A stretch of DNA of 64,000 nt, from assembly GCA_963771885.1 (NCBI GenBank), contig CAVYVF010000023.1, positions 256,001 to 320,000 on the forward strand, given 5' to 3'. Under the pieces are notes generated by a model. The model did no database searches and was not told where the DNA came from. It saw only the letters and a list, made by a program, of their open reading frames with translations. Made by a program: the position numbers and the translations under genes. Shown in pieces: positions 25,994 through 62,696 of the stretch (positions are counted from its first letter, which is position 1; every line of letters begins with the position of its first letter). Source of the stretch: Candidatus Bathyarchaeota archaeon. GTDB lineage: Archaea > Thermoproteota > Bathyarchaeia > TCS64.

Positions 25994-26974
25994 GTGGCTC
26001 AGATGCAGGTAGCCGACGGCGTCCACCAGTTCAAGATTCCAATGAGGCACAACCCCCTCGGATACACATACTCATACTTCCTCAAGGAGGCGAAGACGCT
26101 CATCGACGCCGGCATACCCTCAAGGGACTCACTCGCCGCCCTCGAGAAGCAGCTAGGGGAACAGGGCACCCGAGTCAAAGACCTCGAGCGGATAATCATC
26201 ACCCACATGCACAACGACCACGTCGGCCTCATAGAGTACATCAGGGAGAGCGCCAATGTCGAGACCGTCGCCCACAGGATAGCCGAGGAACACCAGCAAG
26301 CCCAAATCAGGTGGTACAAAGACATGTACAGAAACATCTCCGAGGAGCTCCAACTCCTAGGCGGTGGCTCCTTCCAACAGTTCCTCAGCCGCTTCGAACA
26401 CGCCTTCAGGGAGGACCCCAAGCCCCTCAAACTCAACACGCTCATCGAGGACGACGCGGTCATCGACCTCCCCGGCGCCAAGCTAAGGGTGATCTGGACA
26501 CCTGGACACGCAGCCGAGCACATTTGCCTCCACGACGCTGAGAAGCAGATACTCTTCAGCGGCGACCACGTCCTCCCCAAGATCACAAGCCACGTCAGCG
26601 AACACACCTGGGAGAAACGCGACCCACTCGGAGACTACCTCGCCAGCCTCGTCAAGGTCCGCGACCTCCCCGTCAACCTCATCCTCCCAGGACACGAGAC
26701 AAGCTTCACAAACCTCCCCGACCGCATCACGCAGCTCTTCAAACACCACGAAGCCCGCCTAGAAGAGGTAAGATCCGCGTTGAAGAACGGTAAGAGCACC
26801 GTCTTCGAGGTAGCAAGCGTGATCCACTGGGACAGCCGCCCATGGCTAGTAATGGACTTCTGGACGAAGCGCATGGCCGCGACCGAGACCTACGCACACC
26901 TCATATACCTTCGGAACAAGGGCGAGATAACCGAAAAGACGGTCGACGATACACTGTACTACACTCTGGCTTAA
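25994..26974 (+). CDS. MBL-fold metallo-hydrolase with C-terminal winged helix
   Basis: THMHNDHVG, TPGH, SGDH and PGH motifs. Confidence 0.9.
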   Translation: MAQMQVADGVHQFKIPMRHNPLGYTYSYFLKEAKTLIDAGIPSRDSLAALEKQLGEQGTRVKDLERIIITHMHNDHVGLIEYIRESANVETVAHRIAEEHQQAQIRWYKDMYRNISEELQLLGGGSFQQFLSRFEHAFREDPKPLKLNTLIEDDAVIDLPGAKLRVIWTPGHAAEHICLHDAEKQILFSGDHVLPKITSHVSEHTWEKRDPLGDYLASLVKVRDLPVNLILPGHETSFTNLPDRITQLFKHHEARLEEVRSALKNGKSTVFEVASVIHWDSRPWLVMDFWTKRMAATETYAHLIYLRNKGEITEKTVDDTLYYTLA

Positions 26975-27630
26975 CGCCAGACCTTGACGCCCTTCTCGAC
27001 CAGGTACTGAGCAGCAAGGTCCGCGATGTCAGGCGCCTTAAAGGGAATACGCATCTCCTTGATCTGCTCGAGCAGATCACGGTACGTGATCTCCTCACGC
27101 CCCCTCTTGACGTACTGATCCATGATGGTCTGAGCAACCTCCTCCGCAACCCTATACTTAGGACTGAGAGTCCTATAGTGGTGACGCAACGCAGCAGCGA
27201 TCTCGTCGCCACTCGCACTGCTAAGAGCCCAGACAGTGGGGCGTGGACCACCCTTACTCGACTGAACCTTCGACACCTTCAACGCGGGACTGATAAGTCC
27301 GACGGCCCTAAGCCTCTTAAGAGTCCTGTAAACAGTCGCCTCAGGCTGATTAAGCTCAGTCTGCAGCACCCACGCCGTACCCGCTCCATGAAGGCAAAAG
27401 TAAAGGAACGTCTCAGCAACGGCCGGAGAACTGAATATATTCTCGCTAAAGTTAAGGAGCTCCTGAATATTCTTGAGGGTAGTAGCTAGGTCATTCTTCT
27501 CATTGAGAAGGAGCAGCTGACGGAAGATCTGGGTGTATTTGACGAAATTACTCTCGTCTGGCCGCGACCTGATAACCGATCGACTTTTATCGAGGTTTAA
27601 CGCATCTCTCAAGGGCACAACTCGAGCCAT
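26971..27630 (-). CDS. Winged-helix DNA-binding protein (TrmB/ArsR-like HTH)
   Basis: TAWVLQTELNQPEATVYRTLKRLRAVGLI helix-turn-helix; ATG at 27630. Confidence 0.7.
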   Translation of the reverse strand: MARVVPLRDALNLDKSRSVIRSRPDESNFVKYTQIFRQLLLLNEKNDLATTLKNIQELLNFSENIFSSPAVAETFLYFCLHGAGTAWVLQTELNQPEATVYRTLKRLRAVGLISPALKVSKVQSSKGGPRPTVWALSSASGDEIAAALRHHYRTLSPKYRVAEEVAQTIMDQYVKRGREEITYRDLLEQIKEMRIPFKAPDIADLAAQYLVEKGVKVWR

Positions 27631-27694
27631 AGTGTCGTCACATAACCTAGCCTTTCGTCGGCGAAAGAAAAACGGACGCGATAAGCTTATAAGA

Positions 27695-27727
27695 TTACTT
27701 GTTAACAAGTAAACATGTAAACAAGTA
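27695..27727. promoter_or_regulatory. Operator-like array: 18-bp perfect palindrome plus tandem 8-bp AACAWGTA units
   Basis: ttacttgttaacaagtaa (27695-27712); aacaagta/aacatgta/aacaagta at 27704-27727; lies between two divergent DNA-binding genes. Confidence 0.75.
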
Positions 27728-27747
27728 ATCAGGTCGCACCGTAAACA

Positions 27748-28197
27748 ATGACACGCAAGACAGTCGCCATCCGAGGCCTCGACACGGGGCTTTACAACGA
27801 GGTCTTCTCAATGGCGAAGAAGGATGGCAAGCGCGTCAGCGACCTGGTGAACTCTGCGCTCAAGGCCTATATCGATGGGGACGTTGCTCCTGTTAAACTG
27901 GGGGAGCCAGTCATCGAGGCAGGGGCGACACAGTCTGCCGGCAGCTTCGTCCTCAGCGTGGAGGATGAGGGTGAGGTCACGCTCTCGAAGAACGATGTGC
28001 TTGACATCAGCAGGGACATGGGTCCCTTTAAGATCGAGAGCAGCGGGACGCTGACGTTCGAGAAGGACGTGGACTCTGAGGCACTCAGGGGCATAGAGAA
28101 GATCGTTATCCTCTCGGGTGAGGTCAGGGTGCCGAAGAAGACCTATCCACAGTTCCTTATTAAGTGCCAGATCAAGGGTAAGCTCGACAAGTATTGA
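27748..28197 (+). CDS. Ribbon-helix-helix protein with uncharacterised C-terminal domain
   Basis: KTVAIRGLD..LY......AKKDGKRVSDLVNSALKAYI RHH pattern. Confidence 0.7.
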   Translation: MTRKTVAIRGLDTGLYNEVFSMAKKDGKRVSDLVNSALKAYIDGDVAPVKLGEPVIEAGATQSAGSFVLSVEDEGEVTLSKNDVLDISRDMGPFKIESSGTLTFEKDVDSEALRGIEKIVILSGEVRVPKKTYPQFLIKCQIKGKLDKY

Positions 28198-28749
28198 GCA
28201 CCCAACGCCTCGTGGGCGTCGAGGACGGCAGCTTCGACGCGTTTCTCCCCGGGCAGACGACGCTCCTGTGCGCGGTCTGCATGGCTGGAGACCGAGTCGA
28301 GTGGGTGAAGCTAGGGAGGGTCAGGGTTGACGGGCGCGAAGCCACGGGTGTATTACTCGGCATGCTCCGGGGCGAGAGATTCGACGCCCTCATCCTCGGC
28401 GGCGTGAGCTTCGCCGGCTTCGATGTCGTCGACCCGCAAGTGTTACGCGAGGAACTTGGTGTCCCTGTCATCGTTTACTCGTCTAAGCTGCCCGACAGCA
28501 CTTCGACGTTATCTGCTCTTAAAGCGAACTTCTCAGACTGGGCGGAGAGGTGGGCACCCATCGAGCGTGATGGGGAGTGTTTACAGCACCATCACAAAAG
28601 ATGGGGAGCCACCGGTCTTCTTCGAGGTCACTGGGTGTACACAGGAGGAAGCAGAAGGAATTCTTCGAACCTCGGTCTCCCTAACCAGAACGCCGGAACC
28701 CGTAAGGGTGGCGGGAATCATCGCGCGCGGGCTCTCTAGAAGCGCTTGA
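28194..28749 (+). pseudogene. DUF99 / endonuclease V-like protein, +1 frameshift near 28569
   Basis: GVEDG, VDGREAT and GVSFAGFDVVD motifs; the conserved PEPVRVA C-terminus is in the next frame. Confidence 0.8.
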
Positions 28750-30214
28750 AGTCCAGATCGATCGTCTGGTGGGTCTGCAGGTCGAAGATAGTCGCGACAC
28801 CGGTCGTGGGCTCGATCTGCATCCTCTTCTGGAAGGGGGTCTGGTCCTGCCAGCTCCCCGCAGAGACGAGTGTGACGCCTTTGTAGCGCTTTGTCTCGCC
28901 AATATGGACGTGCCCCATCAGTGCGACATCTGGAATGCTGCTTATGACGAGGCGGTCAGTGCGCTCCGGGGCTATTGGCGTGCTCTGCCCGTAGCGGGGC
29001 GCGAGGTGGCGGCATCTAAAGAGGAGCTCCATCGCCTTCAGTGGGTGGTTGAACTCGTAGCCGGGGGTACTACTGAGTATGTCATCCATTCCCTTACCAT
29101 GCTCGGCGAGGAGCTCTACCCCGTTGAGGTTAAGCCTACAGGGGCTGGGGAGCATCTTGACGCGTGGATTCTCGTGTAGCTCCTTCGCGTATTCCTTTGG
29201 AATCGAGGGCTGGGGCATGCTGTGGCGCGTCGCGTCGTGGTTGCCCGGTGTAACGACGATCTCAACGTAGTCGGGGAGTCGTTTCAGGAGCTCAGCGGCG
29301 GCTCTGTACTGTTCGCGGATGTCAGTTATAGTTAACTCGGTGAGCTGATCCGGATAGATGCCCACACCGTCGACGAGGTCGCCGGCAATAACGACGTACT
29401 TGACCTTGGCTGCCGCGTCACGGCTCTGTGAGGGTCCTAGTTCGAGGTTCATCCAGTCGATGAACTTGTCGAAGAGGTCGCCTCGGAAGTACTTTGAGCC
29501 TACATGGACGTCGGCGAGGAGGACGGCATAGAGCGGGTCGGGGCTCCGGCGGGCAGTGTTGGATGGAACATCGGGCCAGATCCAGTCGTTTGCGACGAGT
29601 AGGTCGTCAGTATATTTGACGGCGTCGACGGCGACGACCTGGTCCTCCTGCAATTCGAGCCCTCTGCGCATGACCTCGTCGTCACTAGCCATGACGCTGA
29701 TGGATGATTGGCGGTCCTCGAGCTCGATGAAGAGCTTGGAGCCGCGGGTTCGCTTCTCGGTGACGATACCGATTGTCTTGAGCTTGGTCTTTATAGGGAG
29801 CTTTAACGCCTGCTCGATCGCGACTGCTTCTCGTACGTCTACTCGGCGTTTGAGGATGGTTTCGAGGCGGTCGTATCTGCTCTGGAAGTAGTTGAGAAAG
29901 CCCTCGGCGTTACTTGCAGGTTCGGCAGGTTCCTCGTCGAGGACCTTGAGGGGGGTGCCTTTGTCCCTAGCGGGGATCGGGCGGTTTTTTATGGGGAGTG
30001 GTTCGGGTCGGGTGGTCTCGACGAGGGCGAATAAGAAGCCCTTATCGAGAACGAAAAGGGGTGGAGAGGCGGAGTCAGCCTTTATGATTGCCTTCTGGGT
30101 GATGGTCTCGGCGATCTCAGCGGATAGCCCGTAGAGGTACGAGTATGCTTCGGGGCTTAGTTGGTAGCCCGCTGTGATGATGTGCTGTAGGAACGGTGGC
30201 ATCCGCTGACTCAA
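28736..30214 (-). CDS. polB: DNA polymerase D small (proofreading) subunit DP1
   Basis: OB fold plus DVHVGS, AGDLVDG, PGNHD, HG, HLAP and GHVH phosphoesterase motifs. Confidence 0.95.
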   Translation of the reverse strand: MSQRMPPFLQHIITAGYQLSPEAYSYLYGLSAEIAETITQKAIIKADSASPPLFVLDKGFLFALVETTRPEPLPIKNRPIPARDKGTPLKVLDEEPAEPASNAEGFLNYFQSRYDRLETILKRRVDVREAVAIEQALKLPIKTKLKTIGIVTEKRTRGSKLFIELEDRQSSISVMASDDEVMRRGLELQEDQVVAVDAVKYTDDLLVANDWIWPDVPSNTARRSPDPLYAVLLADVHVGSKYFRGDLFDKFIDWMNLELGPSQSRDAAAKVKYVVIAGDLVDGVGIYPDQLTELTITDIREQYRAAAELLKRLPDYVEIVVTPGNHDATRHSMPQPSIPKEYAKELHENPRVKMLPSPCRLNLNGVELLAEHGKGMDDILSSTPGYEFNHPLKAMELLFRCRHLAPRYGQSTPIAPERTDRLVISSIPDVALMGHVHIGETKRYKGVTLVSAGSWQDQTPFQKRMQIEPTTGVATIFDLQTHQTIDLDFKRF

Positions 30215-30224
30215 TCTGGGTTTC

Positions 30225-30566
30225 TCACTTCGCCTTTGCTAAGTAGTCTTCGCGAGGCGGGGCGAAGGTCTCGATGAGTATGGTCTCGCCTTTACTAGTG
30301 TTTACCCAGTCGTGGCTCTCGCCTCCGGGTATCTGCCAGCTGGCGCCGGCGACGGTCTTGAACTTCTTCCCGTCGCTAGTTAGAACGCCTTCGCCCTTGA
30401 TGCATGTGCCAATCTGCTCATGGGGGTGTTTGTGATCGGGGACGACCGCGCCTGGCTGGGCGATTATGTAGGTGAGCATCGTCTTCTCGCCGCTTCCTAT
30501 GATCCTGATCTCGACGCCTGGTGCGGGCGTCATGCGTGGTGCCTTCTCCCAACTATTGGTCTTCAT
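30225..30566 (-). CDS. Cupin domain protein
   Basis: PDHKHPHEQ...IPGGESH and FAPPREDY motifs. Confidence 0.85.
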   Translation of the reverse strand: MKTNSWEKAPRMTPAPGVEIRIIGSGEKTMLTYIIAQPGAVVPDHKHPHEQIGTCIKGEGVLTSDGKKFKTVAGASWQIPGGESHDWVNTSKGETILIETFAPPREDYLAKAK

Positions 30567-30748
30567 GTCGTATCTCTGGGGGATTGTGAGGGTATAAAGG
30601 ATACTCGGCTTGTGGCTGCTACCACAATGCACGTACATTAATAGACAAAATCAGAGGCATTTAGTTCGGTTACGTGTCCGAAAAACGTCGTTTTCGCTAC
30701 ACTTTTCGTGCATGAAGATAGAGATCGGGGTGAACGTCACTGTTAGAA

Positions 30749-31417
30749 CTAGAGACTCGGCTGCTGCTCGAGCTGCTGCTGGATGAGGTCGCGTATTTCC
30801 TTGCGGACACTGTAGCGGTAGGGCATAGCGTTTGTGCTGCGGTCGACAAAGCCCGACTCATAGAGCTTCTTGAGCATGCGCGCCGTATGCTCGCGTGTTG
30901 TGCCGAGGTGCTCCCTGATCTCGGGGACGGCGCCCTCGCCTACTTCAGCGATCTTCTTCAGGGCGCTGAGCTCCGTCTCGGTTAGCTGGCTGAGTATGTT
31001 ACCCTGCTGGACGGGTATGGGTGCCACTATGTCCTGGCGGACAACAATGCGCTGCTTGGGCGCCGTGGCGAGCTTTTGGACCTCCTTGCGGAGGGACTCC
31101 ATCGAGGTCTCGTTTGTCTCGACGCGGTTCTGAAGGCTCTTGACGGCTTCGAGGCCCTTGAGTGTTGCTTCCTTTGCCTCGCCGCTGTTGCGTAGCGCCT
31201 CAGATGCGACTATCTTGGCGGTGGTCGCCTCGTTCTCAGCCTTGGCGACGTCCTGCTGGAGTCTGTTCACCTGACGCGTGAAGCCGAATGTGATGTTGCG
31301 CACTGACTCGCGGGCGTCGTCGTACTCGGTAGTGGCCTCCTGAATCTTACGATAGAAAATGATGGAGGCGGCTACGGTTACTAGGAGTAGTGCAGCCGCG
31401 GTGAATGATAACTCCAA
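30749..31417 (-). CDS. Membrane-anchored coiled-coil protein with C-terminal winged-helix DNA-binding domain
   Basis: N-terminal TM (FTAAALLLVTVAASIIFY), about 110-aa heptad stalk, LTETE...TREHTARMLKKLYESGFVDR...PYRY wHTH. Likely TTG start. Confidence 0.8.
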   Translation of the reverse strand: MELSFTAAALLLVTVAASIIFYRKIQEATTEYDDARESVRNITFGFTRQVNRLQQDVAKAENEATTAKIVASEALRNSGEAKEATLKGLEAVKSLQNRVETNETSMESLRKEVQKLATAPKQRIVVRQDIVAPIPVQQGNILSQLTETELSALKKIAEVGEGAVPEIREHLGTTREHTARMLKKLYESGFVDRSTNAMPYRYSVRKEIRDLIQQQLEQQPSL

Positions 31418-31552
31418 GGTATCGCCGTCGAGTTTGCTCTGAGTGCATTGAGGCGTGCCGTGCTTTTTACTCCTCCGGTTACCCTCGCCGGGTGGCTGCA
31501 ACCGGGGAACTGACTATTTAAAAGACTCCGCCCACCATAGCTTTGAATCCGC

Positions 31553-33874
31553 TTGGCCGCCGAGCGAGTCGAGGCAGAGGTGCACGTCACCGGGAGGGTG
31601 CAGGGGGTGGGCTTCCGCCCCTTCATCTATCGCCTCGCCGTCCGCCACGGCCTAAGTGGTTACGTCATTAACCTCGGTGACGCCGGCGTAGAAGTCGTGG
31701 TCGAAGGCGCAGCCGAGGACGTGGGCGACTTCATAAACGCAATCAAGGCCGAGGCGCCCACGGTCTCCGAGGTTAGCGGTGTACACGCCCACCACAAGCC
31801 CTACAGGGGCAGGTTCACAGGGTTCGTCATCGACAAGAGCAGGACCATAGGGCAGTCGGCCTCGGGTATCTTCCCTCCCGACATCGGCATCTGCCCCGAT
31901 TGCCTCATGGATATGGAGGACAGGAAAGGACGCTGGTTCGAGTACCCGTTCACAGCCTGCGCCTGGTGCGGGCCACGCTTCACAGGCGTTAGGGAACTCC
32001 CCTACGACAGGGAAAGGACCCACATGCGCGGCTTCCCTATGTGCGAGGACTGTGTGACCGACTACAGGAACCCACTTGACAGGCGGTTCGACGCCCAGGG
32101 GATAACCTGCAGTGTCTGCGGCCCAAAGATGAGTCTGCTCGACGCCTCGGGGCAGCGAATGGGAGTCACCGACGTCTTCTCAGAGGCCTCGAAGCTACTA
32201 AGAGAAGGGCACGTCGTCGCCGTCAAGGGCATTGGGGGCTTCCATATCGCCGCCCTAGCCACCGAGGATGACACTGTGGCAAAGCTCAGGGCACGGAAGA
32301 ACCGTCCCTACCAGCCATTCGCCCTGATGGCACCCGACATAAGCGCCGTCAGGAGATTCGCCGAACCCGACGAGAACGAGTCGAAGGCGCTAGTCTCTTG
32401 GCAGAAGCCGATAGTCCTCATCAGGAGGAAAGAGGAGGTCATTTCGGAGCTCGTCGCCCCCGGATTGAGCCGTGTTGGCGTAATGTTGCCCTACACAGGG
32501 ATACAGGTGATGCTCTTCAAGCGTCTGGGGTTGCCCGCTCTCATTATGACGAGTGGCAACAGGTCGGGATTGCCTATGGCGACGACGAACGAAGCCGCGC
32601 TGAGCGAGCTGCGGGGCATCGCCGACTATTTCCTCGTTCACGAAAGGGAGATCGTGAACAGGTGTGACGATTCGCTTTTGAGGATTAATGGAGAAAGAGT
32701 CGCCTTCATACGCAGATCGCGTGGATACGTACCTGATCCTGTGGAAATTCCAATCAAAAAAGGGGTATCATTCGCAGTCGGGACCGAGCAGAGTAACGTC
32801 GCCGCGATCACTCTCAACGGTAAATGTTATCAAACGCAATATTTAGGTGATATATCCAACCTCGAGTCCTTCGACTACGAGAAAACAGCCATCTACACTA
32901 TGCGTGACCTTCTGAAAATCACATGTAACCCCGATGTGATTGCCTGTGACCAACATCCAGGTTACATGACATCACAGTTGGCCGAGGTGATATCACAAGA
33001 GACAGGGTCGCAAATCACAAAGTCACAGCACCATCACGCCCACATAGTCTCAGTGTGCGCTGAGAACGGAGTAAAACCAGACGAAACAGTCGTGGGAATA
33101 GCGCTAGATGGTGCGGGATACGGTCCTGACGGTACGATCTGGGGTGGAGAAGTGCTAATTTCGACGTATTTTAGCTATAAAAGGGCAGGTCATCTGCAAA
33201 ATCTACCTATGCCGGGAGGCGATCAATGCGCATACAGCCCATACAGGATGCTGATCTCAGCCCTGACCCTCACCTTGAGTGACGAAGAGATACGTGATAT
33301 CACGAAGAATCACATATCACAAGCGTTAGTTAACGGTCATGATGAGCTCAACGTGATACTCCATGAGGCACGGACGAAAAACGTTTCAAAAACTTCGAGT
33401 TCTGGCCGTTATCTCGACTCAATTGCTTCACTTCTTGGCTTGACATATCGCAGAACCTACGAAGGTGAACCCGCGATGAGACTAGAGTCACTGGCTGAAC
33501 TTGGAAACCCTGAAAACATACAAATAGAACCGAAAATCAGTCTCAACAAGGATATTCGAGTGCTTAACACGGCTAATATCCTCAATTACCTGACAATATA
33601 CCAAAATAAGCTTAAAAAACAAGATATTGCGGCATTTGCCCAAAAATATCTCGCCGTTGGTATATCGAATATTGCAATCGAGATAGCACAAGCAGAACAC
33701 ATAGATACAGTGGTAATATCTGGCGGAGTCTTCGTAAACCAGTACATATCTAATACAATCGTCAAAACTCTCGAAAAAAACGGAGTAAAAGTATTAGTTA
33801 ATAAAAAAACCGCACCTGGAGATGGTGGTTCAGCTTTAGGACAATCGTGTATAGCCCTTGCATCTGTGATTTAG
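31553..33874 (+). CDS. hypF: Hydrogenase maturation carbamoyltransferase HypF
   Basis: GRVQGVGFRP acylphosphatase domain, two CxxC zinc fingers, KGIGGFH, QHHHAH and PGDGGSALGQ motifs. Confidence 0.95.
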   Translation: MAAERVEAEVHVTGRVQGVGFRPFIYRLAVRHGLSGYVINLGDAGVEVVVEGAAEDVGDFINAIKAEAPTVSEVSGVHAHHKPYRGRFTGFVIDKSRTIGQSASGIFPPDIGICPDCLMDMEDRKGRWFEYPFTACAWCGPRFTGVRELPYDRERTHMRGFPMCEDCVTDYRNPLDRRFDAQGITCSVCGPKMSLLDASGQRMGVTDVFSEASKLLREGHVVAVKGIGGFHIAALATEDDTVAKLRARKNRPYQPFALMAPDISAVRRFAEPDENESKALVSWQKPIVLIRRKEEVISELVAPGLSRVGVMLPYTGIQVMLFKRLGLPALIMTSGNRSGLPMATTNEAALSELRGIADYFLVHEREIVNRCDDSLLRINGERVAFIRRSRGYVPDPVEIPIKKGVSFAVGTEQSNVAAITLNGKCYQTQYLGDISNLESFDYEKTAIYTMRDLLKITCNPDVIACDQHPGYMTSQLAEVISQETGSQITKSQHHHAHIVSVCAENGVKPDETVVGIALDGAGYGPDGTIWGGEVLISTYFSYKRAGHLQNLPMPGGDQCAYSPYRMLISALTLTLSDEEIRDITKNHISQALVNGHDELNVILHEARTKNVSKTSSSGRYLDSIASLLGLTYRRTYEGEPAMRLESLAELGNPENIQIEPKISLNKDIRVLNTANILNYLTIYQNKLKKQDIAAFAQKYLAVGISNIAIEIAQAEHIDTVVISGGVFVNQYISNTIVKTLEKNGVKVLVNKKTAPGDGGSALGQSCIALASVI

Positions 33875-34775
33875 TGTGATATCACACCACTTTAAGCTTC
33901 GTCGGCCGTGCCATCAACTCGATTCCTTCAGTTAACTCATCCTCGATCCGCTTGAGCAATCGCCCTAGAAACCTTAGGACCCGATTTTTCTACAGCCGTA
34001 AGATAATCCCTCAATTTTTCGACGAGATTTTGGTACTCCTCAAAGGGTTTTGCATCGAAGACCCCAACGTAGCTAAGTAAAACTATAGTGAATATTGAAG
34101 ATATCACTCGCCTCCTTCCCTGCCCTAATGTACGGCTAAATGAGCCCCGACTCACCTTTTTGTTCCTATAAATGACCTTATTTTTAAATGGTACCTTTTC
34201 CTCAGACATTACGTCAATTAAAAGATCAATCATCAGTGTTTCAAATTGAATCTTCGTTAAATTGCTGTTTTTAAGTAACAAGTCTGTAATTGGGTCTTGA
34301 AACGCTTTTTGGATTATATTTTGGGCTTCTTCAGGTGATTCCATTGCATCGCCTCAATACAGAGTTGATTACGCCAAATGATACCATTGTATACAATACT
34401 GTATGCCGTATCAATCTTTTGTTTTCACCAGTCAACAACGTCTATTACTGCTTTAAGGAAAGCGGATCGCGTTTTCTAGGTATATAACATAAAAAATCAT
34501 TATAAATTAGCTAAAAATACATCAGGCACTGTTTAAATCCGCCAAATAACACCCTCACAAACAATGATCACTATAGAGCAATTACAGATCGACCCCGACA
34601 AAACCCTGGCAAAGATCGCTAAATTCATAAAAAATGCTTTAAAAAGAGCACACCAAGACGGTGTTGTCATAGCTGTAAGCGGCGGAATCGACTCAGCAGT
34701 AGCACTAGCCGCATCTGTAAGAGTCCTGGGACCGGACAAGATCACGGCGCTCACCCTTCCCGAACGTGATATCAC
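32987..34775. repeat. Cluster of GTGATATCAC palindromes (perfect copies at 32987, 33294, 33876, 34766)
   Basis: Read directly. Three copies extend to 12-14 bp perfect palindromes; several 7-8/10 matches lie nearby. Confidence 0.85.
33882..34344 (-). CDS. Uncharacterised HTH-like protein; C-terminus restored by removing one base near 33960
   Basis: NLTKIQFETL...VSRGSFSRTLGQGRRRV HTH-like segment followed by a hydrophobic helix; the shifted frame continues LLKRIEDELTEGIELMARPTKLKVV*. Confidence 0.65.
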
Positions 34776-35358
34776 GCCTCAGGCAGACGTACAGGATGTG
34801 ATGGAACTCTGTGAGGCATTTGAAGTCACGTGTGAGCACGTTGAAATCACGCCGATGTTACACGTGATGCGGAAAAACATCCCCAAATTCGACCCAGACG
34901 ACCGCGTCGTCTACGGAAACATGAAAGCGCGCCTTAGGATGCTCCTCGCCTACTACTACGCCAACAAACGCAAGTCCATGGTCATGGGAACATCAAATAA
35001 AACCGAGCTTTACCTAGGCTATTTCACTAAATACGGTGACGGCGGAGTCGACATCATGCCTTTCGCCGACCTCTACAAGTGCCAGATCAGGACACTGGGC
35101 AGGCACCTGGGAGTACCAAAGAGTATCACCGAAAAGCCGGCTTCGGCTCGCCTCTGGGCAGGACAGGACACAGAGAAGGACATCGGACTACCCTACAACA
35201 GCATGGACCTTATCGTCCACACCCACTTGTTGGGCTGGGAACCAGCCAAGATTGCCGCCGAGATAGGCATAGACCAGCGCAGTGTAGAGGGGATAATAAC
35301 CAGGATAGCAGCCAACAAGCACAAACGTCGCTCTCCGGCAATCTTAAGACTAAGCTAA
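34564..35358 (+). CDS. nadE: NH3-dependent NAD+ synthetase
   Basis: SGGIDS, NMKARLRM, GYFTKYGDG and PASARLW motifs. Confidence 0.95.
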   Translation: MITIEQLQIDPDKTLAKIAKFIKNALKRAHQDGVVIAVSGGIDSAVALAASVRVLGPDKITALTLPERDITPQADVQDVMELCEAFEVTCEHVEITPMLHVMRKNIPKFDPDDRVVYGNMKARLRMLLAYYYANKRKSMVMGTSNKTELYLGYFTKYGDGGVDIMPFADLYKCQIRTLGRHLGVPKSITEKPASARLWAGQDTEKDIGLPYNSMDLIVHTHLLGWEPAKIAAEIGIDQRSVEGIITRIAANKHKRRSPAILRLS

Positions 35359-35389
35359 CCCCCTACGATAACACTTAGGAGACACGTCC

Positions 35390-35641
35390 ATGGGAAGAAG
35401 AAGGAAGAAAGAAGAGAAGATCATCAGGAAGACGCTGCCGGAGCTCTTCCTCTGCCCCAACTGCGCCAAAAACTCCATAAAAGTCACCATAGATCCCAAG
35501 AACAACCTCGCCGGCATCCGCTGCAGCGCATGCGGCCTCCATGGACGAATAGTAATCGAGCCGAACACCGCCCCCGTGGACGCCTACAGCACCTTCGTCG
35601 ACAAGTACTACGAGGAAGGGGCGACCCAGAAGGTTGGCTAA
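35390..35641 (+). CDS. elf1: Transcription elongation factor Elf1
   Basis: MGRRRKK basic N-terminus, FLCPNC...CSACG zinc ribbon, PVDAYSTFVD. Confidence 0.9.
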   Translation: MGRRRKKEEKIIRKTLPELFLCPNCAKNSIKVTIDPKNNLAGIRCSACGLHGRIVIEPNTAPVDAYSTFVDKYYEEGATQKVG

Positions 35642-36377
35642 GGTAGAGGAATACCTCCAGAAGCGCATCAGGGAGGAGGGCTGCATACACATGACCCTCC
35701 TCGACCCCGAGAAAAAGTCGGGCTACGACTGCGCGGCCATCGCAAAGCAGGCCGAGACAGGTGGTACTGCAGCCATAATGGTTGGCGGGAGCACCGTCGC
35801 CTCAGGCGTCGAGATGGAGGACGCTGTCAAGCGCATCAAAGCTATAGTTAAGCTCCCCGTCATCATCTTCCCCAACAACATCGCCAGCATCACCGGAGCA
35901 GCCGACGCCATCTGGTTCATGAGCCTCCTCAACAGCTCCAACACATACTACCTCATCGACAGCCAAGCTATCGGCGCACCCATGGTGAAGAAACTCGGCA
36001 TCGAGTCTCTGCCGATGGGCTACATAATCATAGGCTACGGTGGCGCAGCAGGCTACGTCGGCCAGGCACGCGTCATCCCATACGAGCGCCCAGAACTCGC
36101 CGTCGCTTATGCTTCGGCAGCAGAGCTTCTAGGTATGCGCTACATCTACCTCGAAGCCGGCTCAGGGGCGCCACAGCCAGTAACGCCACAGATGATAGCC
36201 GCCGTCCGTAAATACTGCAGCGGCACACTCATCGTCGGCGGGGGCATACGCGACCCCAAGGCTGCGGTAGCCGCCAAGAAGGCGGGGGCACAAATAATCG
36301 TCACCGGCACGCTCGTCGAGGAAGAGGCGAAGGTCACGGAGCGCATCTCCGAGATCACCAAGGCCCTCAAGGCCTAA
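35634..36377 (+). CDS. Geranylgeranylglyceryl phosphate synthase (group II)
   Basis: HMTLLDPEK, MVGGST, FMSLLNS, YLEAGSGA and VGGGIR motifs. Confidence 0.93.
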   Translation: MAKVEEYLQKRIREEGCIHMTLLDPEKKSGYDCAAIAKQAETGGTAAIMVGGSTVASGVEMEDAVKRIKAIVKLPVIIFPNNIASITGAADAIWFMSLLNSSNTYYLIDSQAIGAPMVKKLGIESLPMGYIIIGYGGAAGYVGQARVIPYERPELAVAYASAAELLGMRYIYLEAGSGAPQPVTPQMIAAVRKYCSGTLIVGGGIRDPKAAVAAKKAGAQIIVTGTLVEEEAKVTERISEITKALKA

Positions 36378-36412
36378 GCCTATTATCCCGCCGACGCAGT
36401 TACCTTTTCGAT

Positions 36413-39400
36413 TTGAGCCAGCTCCGCATGACCCCAGAGTACAGGGCATACTTCGACGAGTTAGAGGCGAAGCTGGCTAAGCTATACGAGATCGCAGGCG
36501 AGGCGAGGAAAAAGGGCTTCGATGCCTCCACCGAGGTCGAGGCTCAGATCACGCGGGACATCGCGGAGCGAGTCGAGAAGATGCTCGGCCCACCTGGCCT
36601 CACGGCGCGCATGCGCGAGCTTGAGGGCATGGACCGCCGAGAGATGGCCTTCAAGATCGCGGAGGAGATCACCCTCGGACGCTTCGGCAGCTTAGAGAAG
36701 GAAAAGGCCGCCGACCAGGCGATACGCACCGCCCTCGCCATAATGACTGAGGGCGTAACCGTCGCCCCAATCGAGGGCCTCCCAAAGATATGCATAAAGC
36801 CCAACCCCGACCGCACACAATACCTGAGCCTCTACTTCGCCGGCCCCATACGCCCCGCCGGAGGCACAGCCCAGGCGATGACCCTCGTCGTCGCTGACCA
36901 TGTCCGCAAGAAGCTCGGCCTAGAGAAGTTCCAGCCAAGCGAGAACCAGGTCCAGCGCTTCGTCGAGGAAGTGCGCCTCTACGAGCGCACCGTTCGCCGC
37001 TTCCAGTACCACACCACCGACGAGGACCTCGAGGCAGCAATACGCCAGATACCTGTCGAGGCCACGGGAGTCGCCACCGATCCCTTCGAGGTGAGCAACT
37101 ACCGAGACGTCGCCGGTATTGAGACGAACAGGCTCCGCGGCGGCGCCCTCATCGTCGTCGTGGATGGCGTCGTTGGACGCGCAAGGAAACTCCACGGCGC
37201 CTGCGACAAGCTCGGCATCACCGGCTGGGAGTGGCTCCTCAAGATGGGGAGGAAGAAGAAGGTCGAGGGTGAGGTCAAGGCGGAGCCCACTGCCGCCTTC
37301 ATGGATGAGATAATTGTTGGTCGCCCTGTCTTCAGCTTCCCCGGGGCGATAGGGGGTTTCCGACTCCGCTACGGCAGGGCGCGCAACACGGGGCTCGCAG
37401 CCTCTGGCGTACACCCAGCAGCCATGGTCGTGCTCAACAAGTTCCTCGCCACGGGCGTTCAAATGAGAACAGAGCTACCGGGTAAGTCCGCCGCCACTTG
37501 CCCCGTCGACTCAATAGAGCCGCCAGTAGTGCGCCTCAAAGACGGCTCGGTACAGAGAGTAGAGACAGAAGCCGAGGCCGAGCTCCTCCTCCCCCAGATA
37601 AACAGGATAATCTTCCTCGGCGACTACCTCAGCAACGCCGGTGACTTCATCCAGAACAACAAGGCCCTACTCCCAACGGGGTACGACGAGAACCAGTGGG
37701 TGCAGGACCTCAACGCCTCATGCGCGAGGCTCGGCGAGGACGCCGCCATAAGCCTCACGGGGCTCCTCTCAGAGAGGATTAGGTTCCTCAAGTCGAGCCC
37801 CCTCAACCGCCCGACTGTGGATGAGGCGCTCGCAGTCACGGCTATGGACGTCCCCATACACCCGAGGTGGAACTATCACTGGTCCGCCCTCACGAAAGAC
37901 GAATCTACTAGCCTTCCGCAACACACTCGCCACCGAGTACAACCCTGAGTCCACCGAGTACCCAAACATCCCCGAGATCAAAGCGCCCCTCGAGGCACTG
38001 CTCCTGCCCCACAAGGTTCGCGGCGGCAAACTCGACCTCGGTGAGGACGCCCGCGTGTTAGCGAGGACCCTCAACCTAGGCCAGAGATACACGGAGGTCA
38101 AGGGCGAGAAGCCGATTGAGGTCGTGAACTACTTCGCCGGGTTCCCCGTACGGGAGAAGGTAGGGGTATTTGTCGGAGCCCGCATGGGGCGCCCTGAGAA
38201 GGCGAAGGAGCGTCGCATGGCCCCCTACGTCCACAGCCTCTACCCCGTCGGTGAGGCAGGCGGCCCCCAGAGGGACATACTCAAGGCAGAGAAGGGCAAA
38301 ACGGTCAGGATCGAGCTCAGTCAGCGGGAGTGCCTCACCTGTGGCGAGATAGGCAGCACCACCGTCTGCCAGAACTGCGGGGGAGAGACCAAAGAGATAC
38401 GCAGGTGCAGCCGCTGCGGACTCCGATTCGAGGGTGAGCGGTGCCCCCAGTGCCGATCCGAGATCGTCTCCTACACAGGCGTCGATGTAGACCTGAAGGA
38501 CGAGCTCGAGGCGGCGCGCAAAGCGATCGGCGGACAGCTACCGGCGCGCGTCAAGTGCGTGAAGAGGCTAATGAACGCGACGAGGACGCCAGAGAACCTC
38601 GCCAAAGGCATACTCCGTGCCCGTTACGACCTTAGCGTCTTCAAGGACGGCACGCTCCGCTTCGACCTTACCGATATACCCCTCACACACTTCAGACCCA
38701 ACGAGGTCTTCGTCCCCGTTGAGAGGCTCAGGAGCCTCGGCTACACCCATGACACGCATGGCGCACCCCTAGAGCGCCCCGACCAGATGCTTGAGCTCAA
38801 GGTGCAGGACGTAATACTCCCCGAGGACTGCGGCGACTACCTCCTCAAGGCATCCAAGTTCCTCGATGACCAGCTACGCGACTTCTACGGGATGCAGCCG
38901 TACTACAACGCAAAGAGTCGGAACGACCTCGTGGGCTGCCTGCTCCTTGGCCTGGCGCCGCACACCTCCGCCGCCATAACAGGGCGCCTCATTGGCTTCA
39001 CGAAGGTACGCAACCAGTACGCTCACCCCCTTTGGCACGCTGCGAAGAGGAGGAACTGCGACGGCGATGAGGACGCAGTCATGTTAGCGCTCGACCCGCT
39101 GCTCAACTTCAGTAAAGCCTACCTGCCACAGCAGAGCGGTGGCCAGATGGACGCGCCTCTATTTATCATCCCCACGATGAACCCGAGCGAGGTTGATAAG
39201 GAGGCGCACAACGTCGACGTGAACAGCAGCTACCCACCGGAGTTCTACAAGCTTTGCTCGGAGGGGGCGGGGAGCGGCCAGTACGGCGCCTTAGTCGACA
39301 CGATCGGGGCACGCCTCGGCACCGAGGCCCAGTTCGAGGGTATAAGTTACACCGAGGAGTGCAGCGACATAAACCTCGGCAGCTTCCACGGCGCTTATAA

Positions 39401-39851
39401 CACACTCACCACGATGGTGGAGAAGCTCGACAGCCAGCTAGAGCTCGCCCAGAAGCTACGCGCCGTCGACGCCAAGCAGGTTGCCCTTAAGATCCTCAAC
39501 AGTCACTTCATGAAGGACATCGTCGGGAACCTTCGTGCTTTCACCAGCCAGACCTTCCGCTGCACAAAGTGCAACAGGAAGTATAGGCGTCCCCCGCTCG
39601 CCGGGAAGTGCCTGCGCTGCGGCGGCACCATACAGATGACCGTCCACAAGGGCGGCATCGAGAAGTACCTCAAGCCCGCCCTCGACATGGTGAAGAAGTA
39701 CGAGCTCGACCCATACTACGTCGACCGCCTCGAGCTAGTAAAGCTGGAGATGAGCCAGATATTCGTCGAAGAGGCTGTCCCCGAGGAGACATCGAAGCAG
39801 TTCAGCCTCACCGACTTCATGCGGTCGTCTGCAAAGAAGCCCGCACAGTAA
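36413..39851 (+). CDS. polC: DNA polymerase D large catalytic subunit DP2, with an apparent +1 frameshift near 37904
   Basis: YFAGPIRPAGGT, GFRLRYGR, GARMGRPEKA, catalytic NCDGDED and C-terminal Zn finger; the two ORFs join on removing one base. Confidence 0.95.
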
Positions 39852-39891
39852 CCCTTTTAGGGGGAATTGCCTGTATCTGGGACGATAATCC

Positions 39892-40077
39892 ATGAGCGGT
39901 AGGAAGAAGAAAGATGGCTCAGCTGGAATGCCTCAAAGCAGCGCTGGACTAATGAGGTTCTTCCAGGATGAGACGAACGGCCCCAAGATCAGGCCAGAGT
40001 TCGTCGTCGGCGGCGCAGCTGTACTCATCGTCGTCGTGCTCGTCGCAAGAATATTCTTCGCCGGACTCGTCTTTTAG
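39892..40077 (+). CDS. secG: Preprotein translocase subunit Sec61beta/SecG
   Basis: SAGLMRFF...KIRPEFVV plus a single TM. Confidence 0.9.
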   Translation: MSGRKKKDGSAGMPQSSAGLMRFFQDETNGPKIRPEFVVGGAAVLIVVVLVARIFFAGLVF

Positions 40078-40186
40078 GGCGAGACTTTTAACCACCACCC
40101 GGCATACAACTTCCAGCTAGGTAGGGTCGACTCTGTCGGAAAGCCGGGAAGCAATCAGCAACATCGTCGACTACTACTCATACCTT

Positions 40187-41911
40187 GTGACGTTTCCTTC
40201 CCGCCTCGTGATGGTCGCATCCGTCCTCGCCGCGACGAGCGTCACGGGGGCCGCGAGCTTCACACTCGCGATGGGCTGGACGGCGGCGCGGCAGGGTTTC
40301 ATTTTCGGCCTCCTCGGACTCGCCGTGCCCCTCATCGCATCCGACGTGCTAACGGGGCTGTTCTACAGGGACGACCCCCTCCTTTCGCCGAGGCGTGTGA
40401 ACATAGTGTCTTTCGTCTGGAGCATCGCCGGTGGCGCCTTACTAGTGGCTGTAGGGGCGATCGCCGGCTTCCTTGATGCACCCGACCTACTCCTGCGGGG
40501 CATACTCCTGACGATATACTCCTCGGCCTCACTTCGTTTTCTCATCTACGCCGTCTTCTCAACCCGCGGAGCCGGGAGGACAGCGTTGGGTATATCCATC
40601 CAACCGGTACTCCTCGCTGCGGTATCATACATGCTCATACCCTCCATCTGGGAGGCGCCGCCATTCGTCATCGTGGCGGTACTGGGACTGACACTGCTCG
40701 GCCCCGCGATTTTGTTGATCCAGATCAGGAAGTGGGTCTTCGGCGATGGCTCGATAAAGATAATCCCTCTCTTCCGGGCATTTATCTACGCTTGGGCTGA
40801 GCAGCACAGTGAGCCCCTTGAGGAGCAGCTCGCCGCCGTATCGGAGACGGCGCGACTTGAGATCGATGAGTTGACGTTCACGGACTCGTCCGGGGCGTCC
40901 GTAGGGAGTCTTGTCGCCCCATATATTCACCCTGGCCCCTTCAGGAACGTCGGTAGCAGCGGCCTGAGCCTCTCACTCACGGAGGGACTCGGGGAGGGGG
41001 CGGTCGTAATCCACGGCGTGTCAAGCCACGAGAAGGACGTAACACGCAGTGACGATATAGCGAGACTGGTCTCAGCTGTGATGTCTGCTGAGAGAGGAGC
41101 CGCGTCTCCAACCTGCACGCCGATGGCACTCGCCGAGGTCGAGGGAGCAAAAGCGTCCTGCCAGATATTCGGTGAAGCCGCCGTATTCACCCTCACGCTC
41201 AGCCCTAAGAGCCACGACGACATACCCGACGCCGCGAAGGACCGCATAAGGGAAGCTACATCGACCCGCGGACTTGTGGCGGTCGTCGCCGACGCCCACA
41301 ACTGCTTTAATCACGACGACCTACTCGATGACGCTGATATCGAGAACCTCGTCGCTGCCGCCGCGACGGCGCTGGAGAAGGCTTTGAGTCTACCAAAGGC
41401 GCACTTCAGGGTTGGCGTCGCGCGTGTGCGCCCCGAGGAGTGGGGGCTTAACGAGGGCATGGGCCCCTGCGGGATCGCGGTCGTCATCATTGAGACGACC
41501 GTAGGAAAGAATGCCTACATCGTCTTCGATACTAACAACATGATCCCGGGCTTCCGCGAGGAGATACTCACCCACGTTTCCAAACTCGGCTTCTACTCCG
41601 AGGCGATGACCTCGGATACGCACCTCGTGAACGCGATAGGCGCCACAGACAGGGGTTACCATCCCGCTGGCGAAGTTATGGATCACAGCAGAGTGTTATT
41701 TTACATCGATGAGTTACTCAAAGTGGAGACGGAGCCGGCACAGGCGGCTTTCACTCGTGTCGTCGTGGACGGAGTGCCGATTATTGGGCACAGGGGTATA
41801 GAGCTGCTCAGAGGGGTGGTGAAGACGAGTTTCAGGGTCTTCATAAGGACCGCCGCCGCAGCGCTCCCTCTGACCTTCCTTGCCGCCATCGCCGTGGCCC
41901 TTCTCGCCTAG
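40187..41911 (+). CDS. DUF2070 family membrane protein (start may lie about 50 nt upstream)
   Basis: N-terminal TMs; HPGPFRNVGSS, DAHN, DTNNM and TSDTH motifs. Confidence 0.85.
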   Translation: MTFPSRLVMVASVLAATSVTGAASFTLAMGWTAARQGFIFGLLGLAVPLIASDVLTGLFYRDDPLLSPRRVNIVSFVWSIAGGALLVAVGAIAGFLDAPDLLLRGILLTIYSSASLRFLIYAVFSTRGAGRTALGISIQPVLLAAVSYMLIPSIWEAPPFVIVAVLGLTLLGPAILLIQIRKWVFGDGSIKIIPLFRAFIYAWAEQHSEPLEEQLAAVSETARLEIDELTFTDSSGASVGSLVAPYIHPGPFRNVGSSGLSLSLTEGLGEGAVVIHGVSSHEKDVTRSDDIARLVSAVMSAERGAASPTCTPMALAEVEGAKASCQIFGEAAVFTLTLSPKSHDDIPDAAKDRIREATSTRGLVAVVADAHNCFNHDDLLDDADIENLVAAAATALEKALSLPKAHFRVGVARVRPEEWGLNEGMGPCGIAVVIIETTVGKNAYIVFDTNNMIPGFREEILTHVSKLGFYSEAMTSDTHLVNAIGATDRGYHPAGEVMDHSRVLFYIDELLKVETEPAQAAFTRVVVDGVPIIGHRGIELLRGVVKTSFRVFIRTAAAALPLTFLAAIAVALLA

Positions 41912-51471: not shown

Positions 51472-51549
51472 TGGTGGGACCGCCCGGATTTGAACCGGGG
51501 ATCACGTGGTCCCGAACCACGTATCCTAGCCAAGCTAGACCACGATCCC
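51472..51549 (-). tRNA. tRNA-Pro(CGG), CCA encoded, no intron
   Basis: gggatcgtggtctagc...cgtgg-ttcggga-ccacg...ggttcaaatcc...ggtcccacca cloverleaf. Confidence 0.95.
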
Positions 51550-62621: not shown

Positions 62622-62696
62622 GCGACTGTAGTCTAGTGGTTAGGATTCTGGCCTTCCAAGCCAGTAACCCGGGTTCAAATCCCGGCGGTCGCACCA
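62622..62696 (+). tRNA. tRNA-Gly(TCC), CCA encoded, no intron
   Basis: gcgactg...ctggc-cttccaa-gccag...gggttcaaatccc...cggtcgcacca cloverleaf. Confidence 0.95.

Follow-up and report, generated by a model that had tools for sequence, protein, structure and literature searches.

Why should one short palindrome be written four times through the genes of a 1.8-kb segment of an archaeal chromosome and occur nowhere else in the genome, and what would read it? The question is raised by a 64,000-nt stretch of Candidatus Bathyarchaeota archaeon (contig CAVYVF010000023.1), which we call the window and whose positions are used throughout; the whole assembly, G000, comprises 2,457,701 bp and is 92% complete. 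Exact copies of GTGATATCAC stand at 32987, 33294, 33876 and 34766, in the neighborhood of the genes hypF, ORF8 and nadE; 0.06 copies would be expected in the window, and four were reached in 0 of 100 shuffles. An earlier note on this DNA had described these copies, with their flanks and with near-matches at 32966, 34098 and 34841, and had seen no further perfect copy in the window. All of this is exact, and the absence extends to the entire assembly, in which the 23 one-mismatch copies found elsewhere are scattered; the genome-wide scan proposed as a check returns 4 of 4 exact copies at this one locus, and the motif is not uniformly frequent. The note was also right that the copies fall in differing reading frames (VIS and RDIT in hypF, RDIT in nadE), except that the third, which it had placed at a gene junction, overlaps the ORF8 TGA stop (33882-33884) and is not intergenic. 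For YGTGAY half-sites, the best 2.4-kb window holds 25, against a genome mean of 3.7 and 12 at the next-best place (8020 windows); the locus is the genome's single peak of TGTGA-type half-sites and contains 4 of the genome's 7 half-site pairs phased at 10-11 bp. The sites form four clusters, at about -900, -590, 0 and +890 bp relative to the ORF8 stop codon, listed here with the A+T-rich trough of the locus.

32904 to 33037, no strand: site cluster 1, in hypF (codons ~450-495), with phased half-sites TCAC at 32919, GTGA at 32936 and 32946, TCAC at 32972, a perfect palindrome at 32987-32996, and TCAC at 33015, 33023 and 33034.
33270 to 33356, no strand: site cluster 2, in hypF, with a perfect palindrome at 33294-33303 (R581-D-I-T) and a half-site 10 bp downstream (33310).
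33865 to 33886, no strand: core site, with a half-site TGTGAT at 33865 over the final codons of hypF and, 10 bp farther on, the perfect palindrome at 33876-33885 that holds the ORF8 TGA stop.
34742 to 34867, no strand: site cluster 4, in nadE, with a perfect palindrome at 34766-34775 (R68-D-I-T) and half-sites to 34864.
33500 to 34750, no strand: A+T-rich trough seen in the GC profile, spanning the hypF 3' end, ORF8 and the ORF8-nadE spacer.

Across the trough, GC falls from ~0.60 to 0.35-0.43, and a similar trough is present in most of 40 relatives. No broad domain of dispersed sites of the ram or matS kind was found, the 50-kb bins of contig C23 being flat outside the locus, and an Rfam scan of 30000-37000 gave no match at E ≤ 0.1.

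An array of this kind could in principle reflect chance or constraint on the encoded proteins, and it is true that orthologous loci are related and that their counts overstate independence. We nevertheless find this explanation hardly credible and regard it as already refuted by genome uniqueness, by synonymous constraint and by survival in non-coding DNA. Conservation was read from two sets of relatives' loci whose contigs are partly shared and which are not independent: 40 loci centered on ORF8 (out of 44 relatives' matches) and 80 Bathyarchaeia loci centered on another neighboring gene, ccHTH. (In our codes L is a relative's locus, G a genome and f a family; this genome's order is G000-G044.) An exact copy lies within ~1.2 kb in 35 of the 40 ORF8-centered loci, and GTGATGTCAC in two more. 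ORF8 is present in 70 of the 80 ccHTH-centered loci, with GTGAYRTCAC within 1.3 kb of its stop in 69 and within 25 bp in 68, and 181 of the 186 palindromes in that set lie within 1.3 kb of an ORF8 stop. Pairs in Bathyarchaeia take the form GTGA-N2-TCAC, the dominant spacing (26 f1 loci hold 98 such pairs), and direct repeats recur at 10-11 and 21 bp (also 7 outside f1); spacing is looser in f21 and f26. Outside Bathyarchaeia the full palindrome is rarer, but no word is more enriched than the half-site. In f21, whose members we take to be Nitrosopumilaceae-like ammonia oxidizers from Atlas rows naming Nitrososphaerota and from protein likeness, ATCACA occurs 165 times against 30 expected, in 16 of 16 loci.

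When the 415 synonymous columns of 22 hypF orthologues are ranked by constraint, the top nine all lie in GTGA/TCAC half-sites; Arg581 is encoded by CGT in all 18 orthologues that have Arg there (background 0.13), three others having Cys TGT; and the DNA word is kept in another hypF frame in L038 and through the amino-acid swaps R/C and I/V, none of which, any more than 4 of 4 genome copies in 1.8 kb, would follow from chance or protein constraint. Among 27 nadE orthologues, half-sites make up four of the top seven synonymous columns after two at the C-terminus, and the palindrome is lost in five or six of the 27 loci. In other lineages the equivalent outer site lies inside an aminotransferase-like gene or the gene for geranylgeranylglyceryl phosphate (GGGP) synthase, so that three or more unrelated genes serve as hosts at comparable distances. 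Finally, where loci of this order have no hypF, the spacer is non-coding DNA of 22-32% GC, and the cluster 1 core, TCAC(0)-GTGA(+17)-GTGA(+27), is kept in 8 of 9 (seven aligned, L024 seen, L025 without it), with L015 also keeping the +53 and +68 elements. Because that core was retained after the loss of coding constraint, the result holds independently of kinship-inflated counts. By these comparisons the motif is selected as DNA, not protein, just as the earlier note had supposed: synonymous constraint, recoding in unrelated genes and spacing kept in non-coding DNA all agree, and the array is syntenic in relatives, with the word kept at synonymous positions. For the idea that the nine hypF-less spacers hold decayed hypF, tblastn gave only E values of 0.19-9, with five of six matches on motif-coding residues, which is indistinguishable from motif-driven likeness.

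If the word is kept as DNA, which protein keeps it? The candidate lies beside hypF.

30749 to 31417, minus strand: ccHTH, 222 aa, the putative array reader.

The N-terminus of ccHTH is a hydrophobic helix (residues ~1-22, Kyte-Doolittle ~2.0), predicted to be transmembrane (TM), and its predicted structure (pLDDT 84.8, pTM 0.35) is a continuous helix to residue ~117, then a disordered linker and a winged helix-turn-helix (wHTH). The recognition helix, R174-E175-H-T-A-R179 (window 30878-30895), is invariant and repeats the CRP-type R-E-x-x-x-R pattern; Escherichia coli CRP reads TGTGA with R180-E-T-V-G-R185 (PMC11253593). Pfam matches are of the MarR/TrmB wHTH type, with a weak HTH_Crp_2 match (E 7e-4) and Vfr chains at E ~5e-4, and the top Foldseek wHTH matches include AspA (5k5q, E 3e-4), tied with MarR and ArsR proteins. 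Databases label ccHTH a MarR-family regulator and ORF8 hypothetical. Neither Pfam nor the predicted structure gives ccHTH an extracellular or ligand-sensing domain or a domain binding cyclic nucleoside monophosphates (cNMP).

Presence and absence of ORF8 and ccHTH were scored in a panel of 251 genomes of the phylum, 140 of which have ccHTH. Co-occurrence with the motif was followed in 140 loci (L001-L120, L201-L220) with full 2.4-kb windows, an array being at least 10 half-sites per 2.4 kb; eight of these loci fall in no group, the wHTH being truncated or beyond the sampled stretch (e.g., L008, L026 and L040). With an R-type wHTH in the locus, the median is 16 half-sites and an array is present in 91 of 109 loci. 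Genomes without ccHTH (f6, f42, f44 and one f31) have a median of 4 and an array in 0 of 12 loci, and where the first Arg is replaced by K, P or E (f25) the figures are 3 and 0 of 8. An R-type wHTH without ORF8 in the locus still goes with a median of 11, against a background of ~3, and with an array in 14 of 21. Near ORF8, TGA-NN-TCA occurs at 1.97 per kb in 50 Bathyarchaeia loci versus 0.10 in the 12 ccHTH-less loci. In one genome with ccHTH 7 kb from ORF8 (L026, L118), the sites lie around ORF8 and hypF and none is kept at ccHTH. No altered half-site matching the R-to-K change was found in f25, where one asymmetric palindrome remains, and a loose A3 search of five ccHTH-negative genomes returned generic HTH scores only (E ≥ 3e-7). 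We consider it highly probable that ccHTH binds the array, and among the neighboring HTH genes it is only ccHTH that tracks the motif. The earlier note had proposed binding tests with two neighboring HTH proteins; ccHTH does co-occur with the motif, but ORF8 instead pairs with a palindrome of its own at 34389-34406.

That the reader is ORF8, gene X (a gene of the relatives' loci) or the TrmB-like HTH at 26971, or that the array is a termination or dimer-resolution site of the dif/matS type, seems to us very improbable. The array is indeed centered on the ORF8 stop codon, with 67 of 90 stops inside GTGA where ORF8 stands beside an R-type wHTH, but loci with ORF8 and no ccHTH have no array and 0 of 13 stops in GTGA, and f26 has an array, spread over ~5 kb, with ORF8 absent. 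Co-occurrence thus rules out ORF8. Gene X was not found in G000 and the HTH at 26971 turned up in no loci but those of this order, and both were rejected; a terminus site would sit oddly with a locus that is origin-linked, not terminus-linked, in its ancestry.

Two side observations concern ccHTH itself. Contigs titled as bacterial metagenome-assembled genomes (L139, L140, L149) carry a Bathyarchaeia ccHTH and are probably mis-binned. Homologues that have no TM helix in L071-L074, L080 and L119 begin with short hydrophobic-basic stretches (such as LFGK, FWKK), which may resemble amphipathic membrane-targeting helices.

Does the array belong to a replication origin? In relatives the common gene order is DP1, cdc6, a spacer bearing origin recognition boxes (ORB), gene X, ccHTH, ORF8, GGGP synthase and DP2, and in most of them the module lies 1-5 kb from cdc6 and the ORB origin. 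cdc6 is within 6 kb in 16 of 16 f21 loci, 17 of 18 loci among L041-L058 and 40 of 43 among L158-L200; ORB-like boxes score in 41 of the last 43, a partly circular count since these loci trained the matrix. The order here is instead DP1, cupin, ccHTH (minus), hypF, ORF8 (minus), nadE, Elf1, GGGP synthase and DP2, and cdc6, X and ORB are absent from every locus scanned in this genome's order. A cdc6 match of at least 50% identity to the L052 query is absent in 44 of the order's 45 genomes, incomplete assemblies for the most part but including the single-contig G021, and was found in G027; 13 of 16 genomes outside the order have one. In G000 the best ORB score is 18.5, below the training minimum of 21.7, and the only Cdc6 proteins are ~31%-identity paralogues on other contigs, with no ORB seen upstream of the two G000 copies. 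Since the array persists in an order without cdc6-1 and ORB, it is not an ORB origin and is independent of it, and G000-G044 is possibly an origin-less or re-wired lineage. The origin association suggested in the earlier note stands for the ancestral gene order, with cdc6 and ORB adjacent, but not for this genome, and the proposed comparison with GC skew gave no inflection at the locus in cumulative or fourfold-site skew on the 1-Mb contig, where the signal is weak, as it is genome-wide.

One might then suppose that the array is a non-canonical origin or origin enhancer (WhiP/oriC3-like) which, with ccHTH or ORF8 as initiator, replaced the lost cdc6-1/ORB origin. The missing cdc6 and the sub-threshold ORB scores just described invite this idea, as does a GC trough centered on the array and reaching 21-33% in hypF-less loci. 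It is nonetheless improbable: loci with a canonical oriC 1-5 kb off have the array just as much, neither protein has an ATPase domain, the trough is mostly coding in G000, and there is no skew change, although skew is weak everywhere.

Some further observations touch the origin region. The order's remaining Cdc6 paralogue often starts within ~700 bp of a contig end (e.g., G003, G006, G010, G015, G017, G022, G024, G034, G042), which may mark a hard-to-assemble upstream element. Gene X, a BlaI/MecI-like wHTH of 128-142 aa beside oriC, has GTTAA/TTAAC words upstream at 21 per kb, versus 1.9 elsewhere and 6.5 in an A+T-rich control (L052 4255-4604, L084 4200-4549 and 29 other loci, strongest in f21), and possibly forms a third protein-site pair with them. 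In f26 (L101-L109, L120) the order is X, wHTH, hypF, DUF2070, and hypF is an old neighbor of the module; ORB-like boxes lie upstream of gene X there, an ORB-like box stands ~620-680 bp past the wHTH stop, and there is no cdc6 within 6 kb.

What, then, would ccHTH do on its array? We lean, if only somewhat, toward an origin-region membrane tether working like RacA, RocS or RicO. On this proposal ccHTH would cross the membrane once and recognize TGTGA-type half-sites through its winged HTH, with dimers on GTGA-YR-TCAC palindromes and further copies, in a presumed geometry, on half-sites phased at 10-11 and 21 bp. Many anchored stalks (~95 coiled-coil residues, ~14 nm), in a presumed membrane topology, would hold one 2-kb locus. 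In the ancestral order that locus neighbors oriC-cdc6, so the complex would fasten the origin region to the membrane, and it might aid the positioning or separation of daughter chromosomes, which is the weakest step. In lineages whose ccHTH promoter is overlapped by the array, autoregulation of ccHTH could be a side function. The sequence itself shows the uniqueness of the locus, selection at the DNA level, the phasing, the architecture of the protein, the co-occurrence and the ancestral link to the origin. An SMC-like gene is present in 4 of 5 genomes tested. For ParA (PF13614) there is no match in the cluster, in G000 (92% complete) or in G200, while G021, G207 and G066 have matches.

The obvious competitor is a membrane-bound transcription regulator, in which ccHTH would bind the core and the sites ~600-900 bp to either side, loop the DNA and control ORF8, itself or replication genes, with ORF8 autoregulating through its own palindrome, motif B. 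There is something to be said for it: the array lies directly upstream of ccHTH in f21 and in most Bathyarchaeia outside this order, 7 of 10 f25 loci have a single palindrome upstream of their wHTH gene, ORF8 with its promoter lies between core and outer sites, and the Pfam matches are of MarR/TrmB type. But hypF-bearing loci, this genome included, keep the array 1.5-3.4 kb from the ccHTH promoter in coding DNA, with that promoter at background site density; in the 22 loci where ccHTH is more than 1.2 kb from the ORF8 stop, its promoter has 1.5 half-sites per 800 bp, versus a background of 1.1 and 4.4 at the ORF8 stop. There is no regulon, the sites being unique to this locus in the genome, and the protein has no ligand-sensing or extracellular domain; nor does a regulator of ORF8 account for the ~5-kb array of f26, where ORF8 is lacking. 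This uncoupling of the array from both the ccHTH promoter and a canonical origin argues against a plain operator, and we judge the regulator unlikely. The contrast drawn in the earlier note, of a parS/ram/matS-like array rather than a promoter operator, survives in part: the array here is unlike a promoter operator, but there is neither a broad domain on contig C23 nor a ParA match in G000, and in the ancestral order the cluster lies upstream of ccHTH.

The tether must also be set against findings that tell against it. The densest cluster in the ancestral order occupies the 250-450 bp directly upstream of ccHTH, as an operator would, and the sites span ~2 kb (5 kb in f26), versus 600-700 kb for ram or ricS. 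Eighteen of the 109 R-type loci have fewer than 10 half-sites; 25 of 111 R-type wHTH loci have no TM helix, and 16 of these 25 keep the array. By the presence/absence panel the system is dispensable in several families, and in this order, without cdc6-1 and ORB, the tethered locus need not be an origin. Moreover, the loci are kin, so that the counts overstate independence and the contrasts come down to some three lineages that lost the protein (f6, f42, f44), a single lineage with an altered helix (f25) and four or five families that have no ORF8. We offer, as a tentative extension slightly less likely than not, that the tether is an ancient centromere-like device of Thermoproteota, in which a TM coiled-coil wHTH protein would cover a phased TGTGA array and so fix the chromosome to the membrane without ParA. 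In this order it would have outlived the loss of cdc6-1 and ORB to become a stand-alone centromere (or replacement origin), kept under such strong constraint that inserted enzymes are recoded to carry its sites and decay around them.

The remaining features of the neighborhood are as follows.

31553 to 33874, plus strand: hypF (carbamoyltransferase), host of clusters 1 and 2, parting ccHTH from ORF8 in this lineage.
33882 to 34344, minus strand: ORF8, a conserved single-copy all-helical protein, 153 aa in relatives, frameshifted in this assembly.
34389 to 34406, no strand: motif B palindrome (GTATACA-N4-TGTATGC), just upstream of ORF8, the sole perfect copy in the genome.
34564 to 35358, plus strand: nadE (NAD synthase), host of cluster 4.
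28736 to 30214, minus strand: DP1, the small subunit of DNA polymerase D (PolD), marking the left side of the ancestral origin cluster and oriented oppositely in most relatives.
35390 to 39851, plus strand: Elf1, GGGP synthase (PcrB) and the PolD large subunit DP2, right markers of the ancestral origin cluster, DP2 being two overlapping open reading frames here.

ORF8 is matched in 128 of the 251 phylum genomes, nearly always in single copy. It belongs to no Pfam or NCBIfam family, its N-terminal half being weakly HTH-like; its AlphaFold model (pLDDT 81.5) gives VIA Z values of at most 6.9, with weak HTH-type rows (8hno, 7vim), Foldseek has no match at E ≤ 0.001, and a PDB sequence search has none. 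The frame is broken by one extra base at ~33958-33960, absent from the contigs of 3 of 4 sequencing runs, the fourth having no coverage there; the runs were compared as contigs, which carry no expression or coverage-gradient information. This frameshift and the DP2 split (~37820-37948) are probably assembly errors. Motif B, in a loose form, lies upstream of 93 of 118 ORF8 genes versus 7% of random windows and is kept there in 8 of 13 loci of genomes without ccHTH; it is likely to be ORF8's own site, a putative operator. Contigs C14 and C15 hold near-matches to it where a transporter-like open reading frame ends. A complex prediction for ORF8 with ccHTH(22-221) gave no verdict, its score being 0.00, and the viral contigs searched held no relative of either protein. 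Farther along the window are a tRNA-Pro(CGG) at 51472-51549 (minus) and a tRNA-Gly(TCC) at 62622-62696 (plus).

What would the locus mean for archaeal cell biology? If the tether is real, archaea would have a hitherto undescribed means of keeping the origin region at the cell membrane, and homologues of ccHTH occur in f21, the family that we take to be cultured ammonia-oxidizing archaea. The positioning and segregation of archaeal chromosomes are largely open subjects, the nature of the archaeal centromere being listed among outstanding questions in PMC5120986, and here the locus supplies a protein, three of its residues and a short DNA motif. It further suggests that an entire Bathyarchaeia order apparently has no cdc6-1/ORB origin. 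No description of the module was found in the open-access literature searched. Three points are new: ccHTH is assigned as the likely reader from where it occurs, where it is missing and where its helix is altered; around hypF the array has been recoded and has survived; and it persists where it overlaps no promoter and lies beside no canonical origin.

How does this module compare with systems already known? No ParB family occurs among the Pfam matches of the 14 proteins from 26971 to 41911; the parABS feature of origin-proximal palindromic sites is found in the ancestral order, whereas no canonical origin was found in G000. SegAB and the AspA-ParB-ParA system of pNOB8 (PMC5120986) likewise have a binder on palindromes beside its own gene and the same ambiguity between centromere and operator, but here neither the cluster nor G000 shows a Walker-A partner, segA and parA being absent from the cassette by Pfam matches and the gene maps of relatives, the motif is another one, and the binder has a membrane anchor. 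The canonical archaeal oriC (ORB-Orc1/Cdc6; PMC4010727) is adjacent in the ancestral order and is similarly A+T-rich, yet the motif is not an ORB and the array has outlasted the loss of ORBs and cdc6-1. No dif-like element was seen by eye in aligned spacers, and no search was aimed at Xer or MatP. CRP/CAP shares the R-E-x-x-x-R helix and the TGTGA half-site (PMC11253593), but the spacer is 2 bp here (TGTGA-TA-TCACA) and 6 in CRP, and ccHTH has an anchor and coiled coil in place of a cNMP domain and one locus in place of a regulon. RacA-ram of Bacillus subtilis (PMC4914108) combines a winged HTH, a disordered linker and a coiled coil with clustered palindromes near the origin; RacA, unlike ccHTH, is anchored via DivIVA, is sporulation-specific and binds the GC-rich TGACGCCGGCGTCA over ~600 kb, and this MerR-like protein is not among the ccHTH sequence or fold matches listed, no direct comparison having been made. 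RicO-ricS of Staphylococcus aureus (bioRxiv 10.64898/2026.03.06.710092) has nine non-palindromic 18-bp sites over ~700 kb rather than palindromic, phased sites in ~2 kb, and a C-terminal amphipathic helix rather than a TM helix; the domain order of archaeal ccHTH is the reverse of that in RicO and RocS, and no library match in general scans, which involved no direct homology comparison, names either of them. Given the reversed architecture and the absence of dispersed sites, we do not count the module as a member of the RacA/RocS/RicO group. Nevertheless, like RicO and like RocS of Streptococcus pneumoniae, which have an HTH, a coiled coil, a membrane anchor of their own and an origin-proximal motif, ccHTH is predicted to unite HTH, coiled coil and membrane anchor in one protein, in the presence of SMC.

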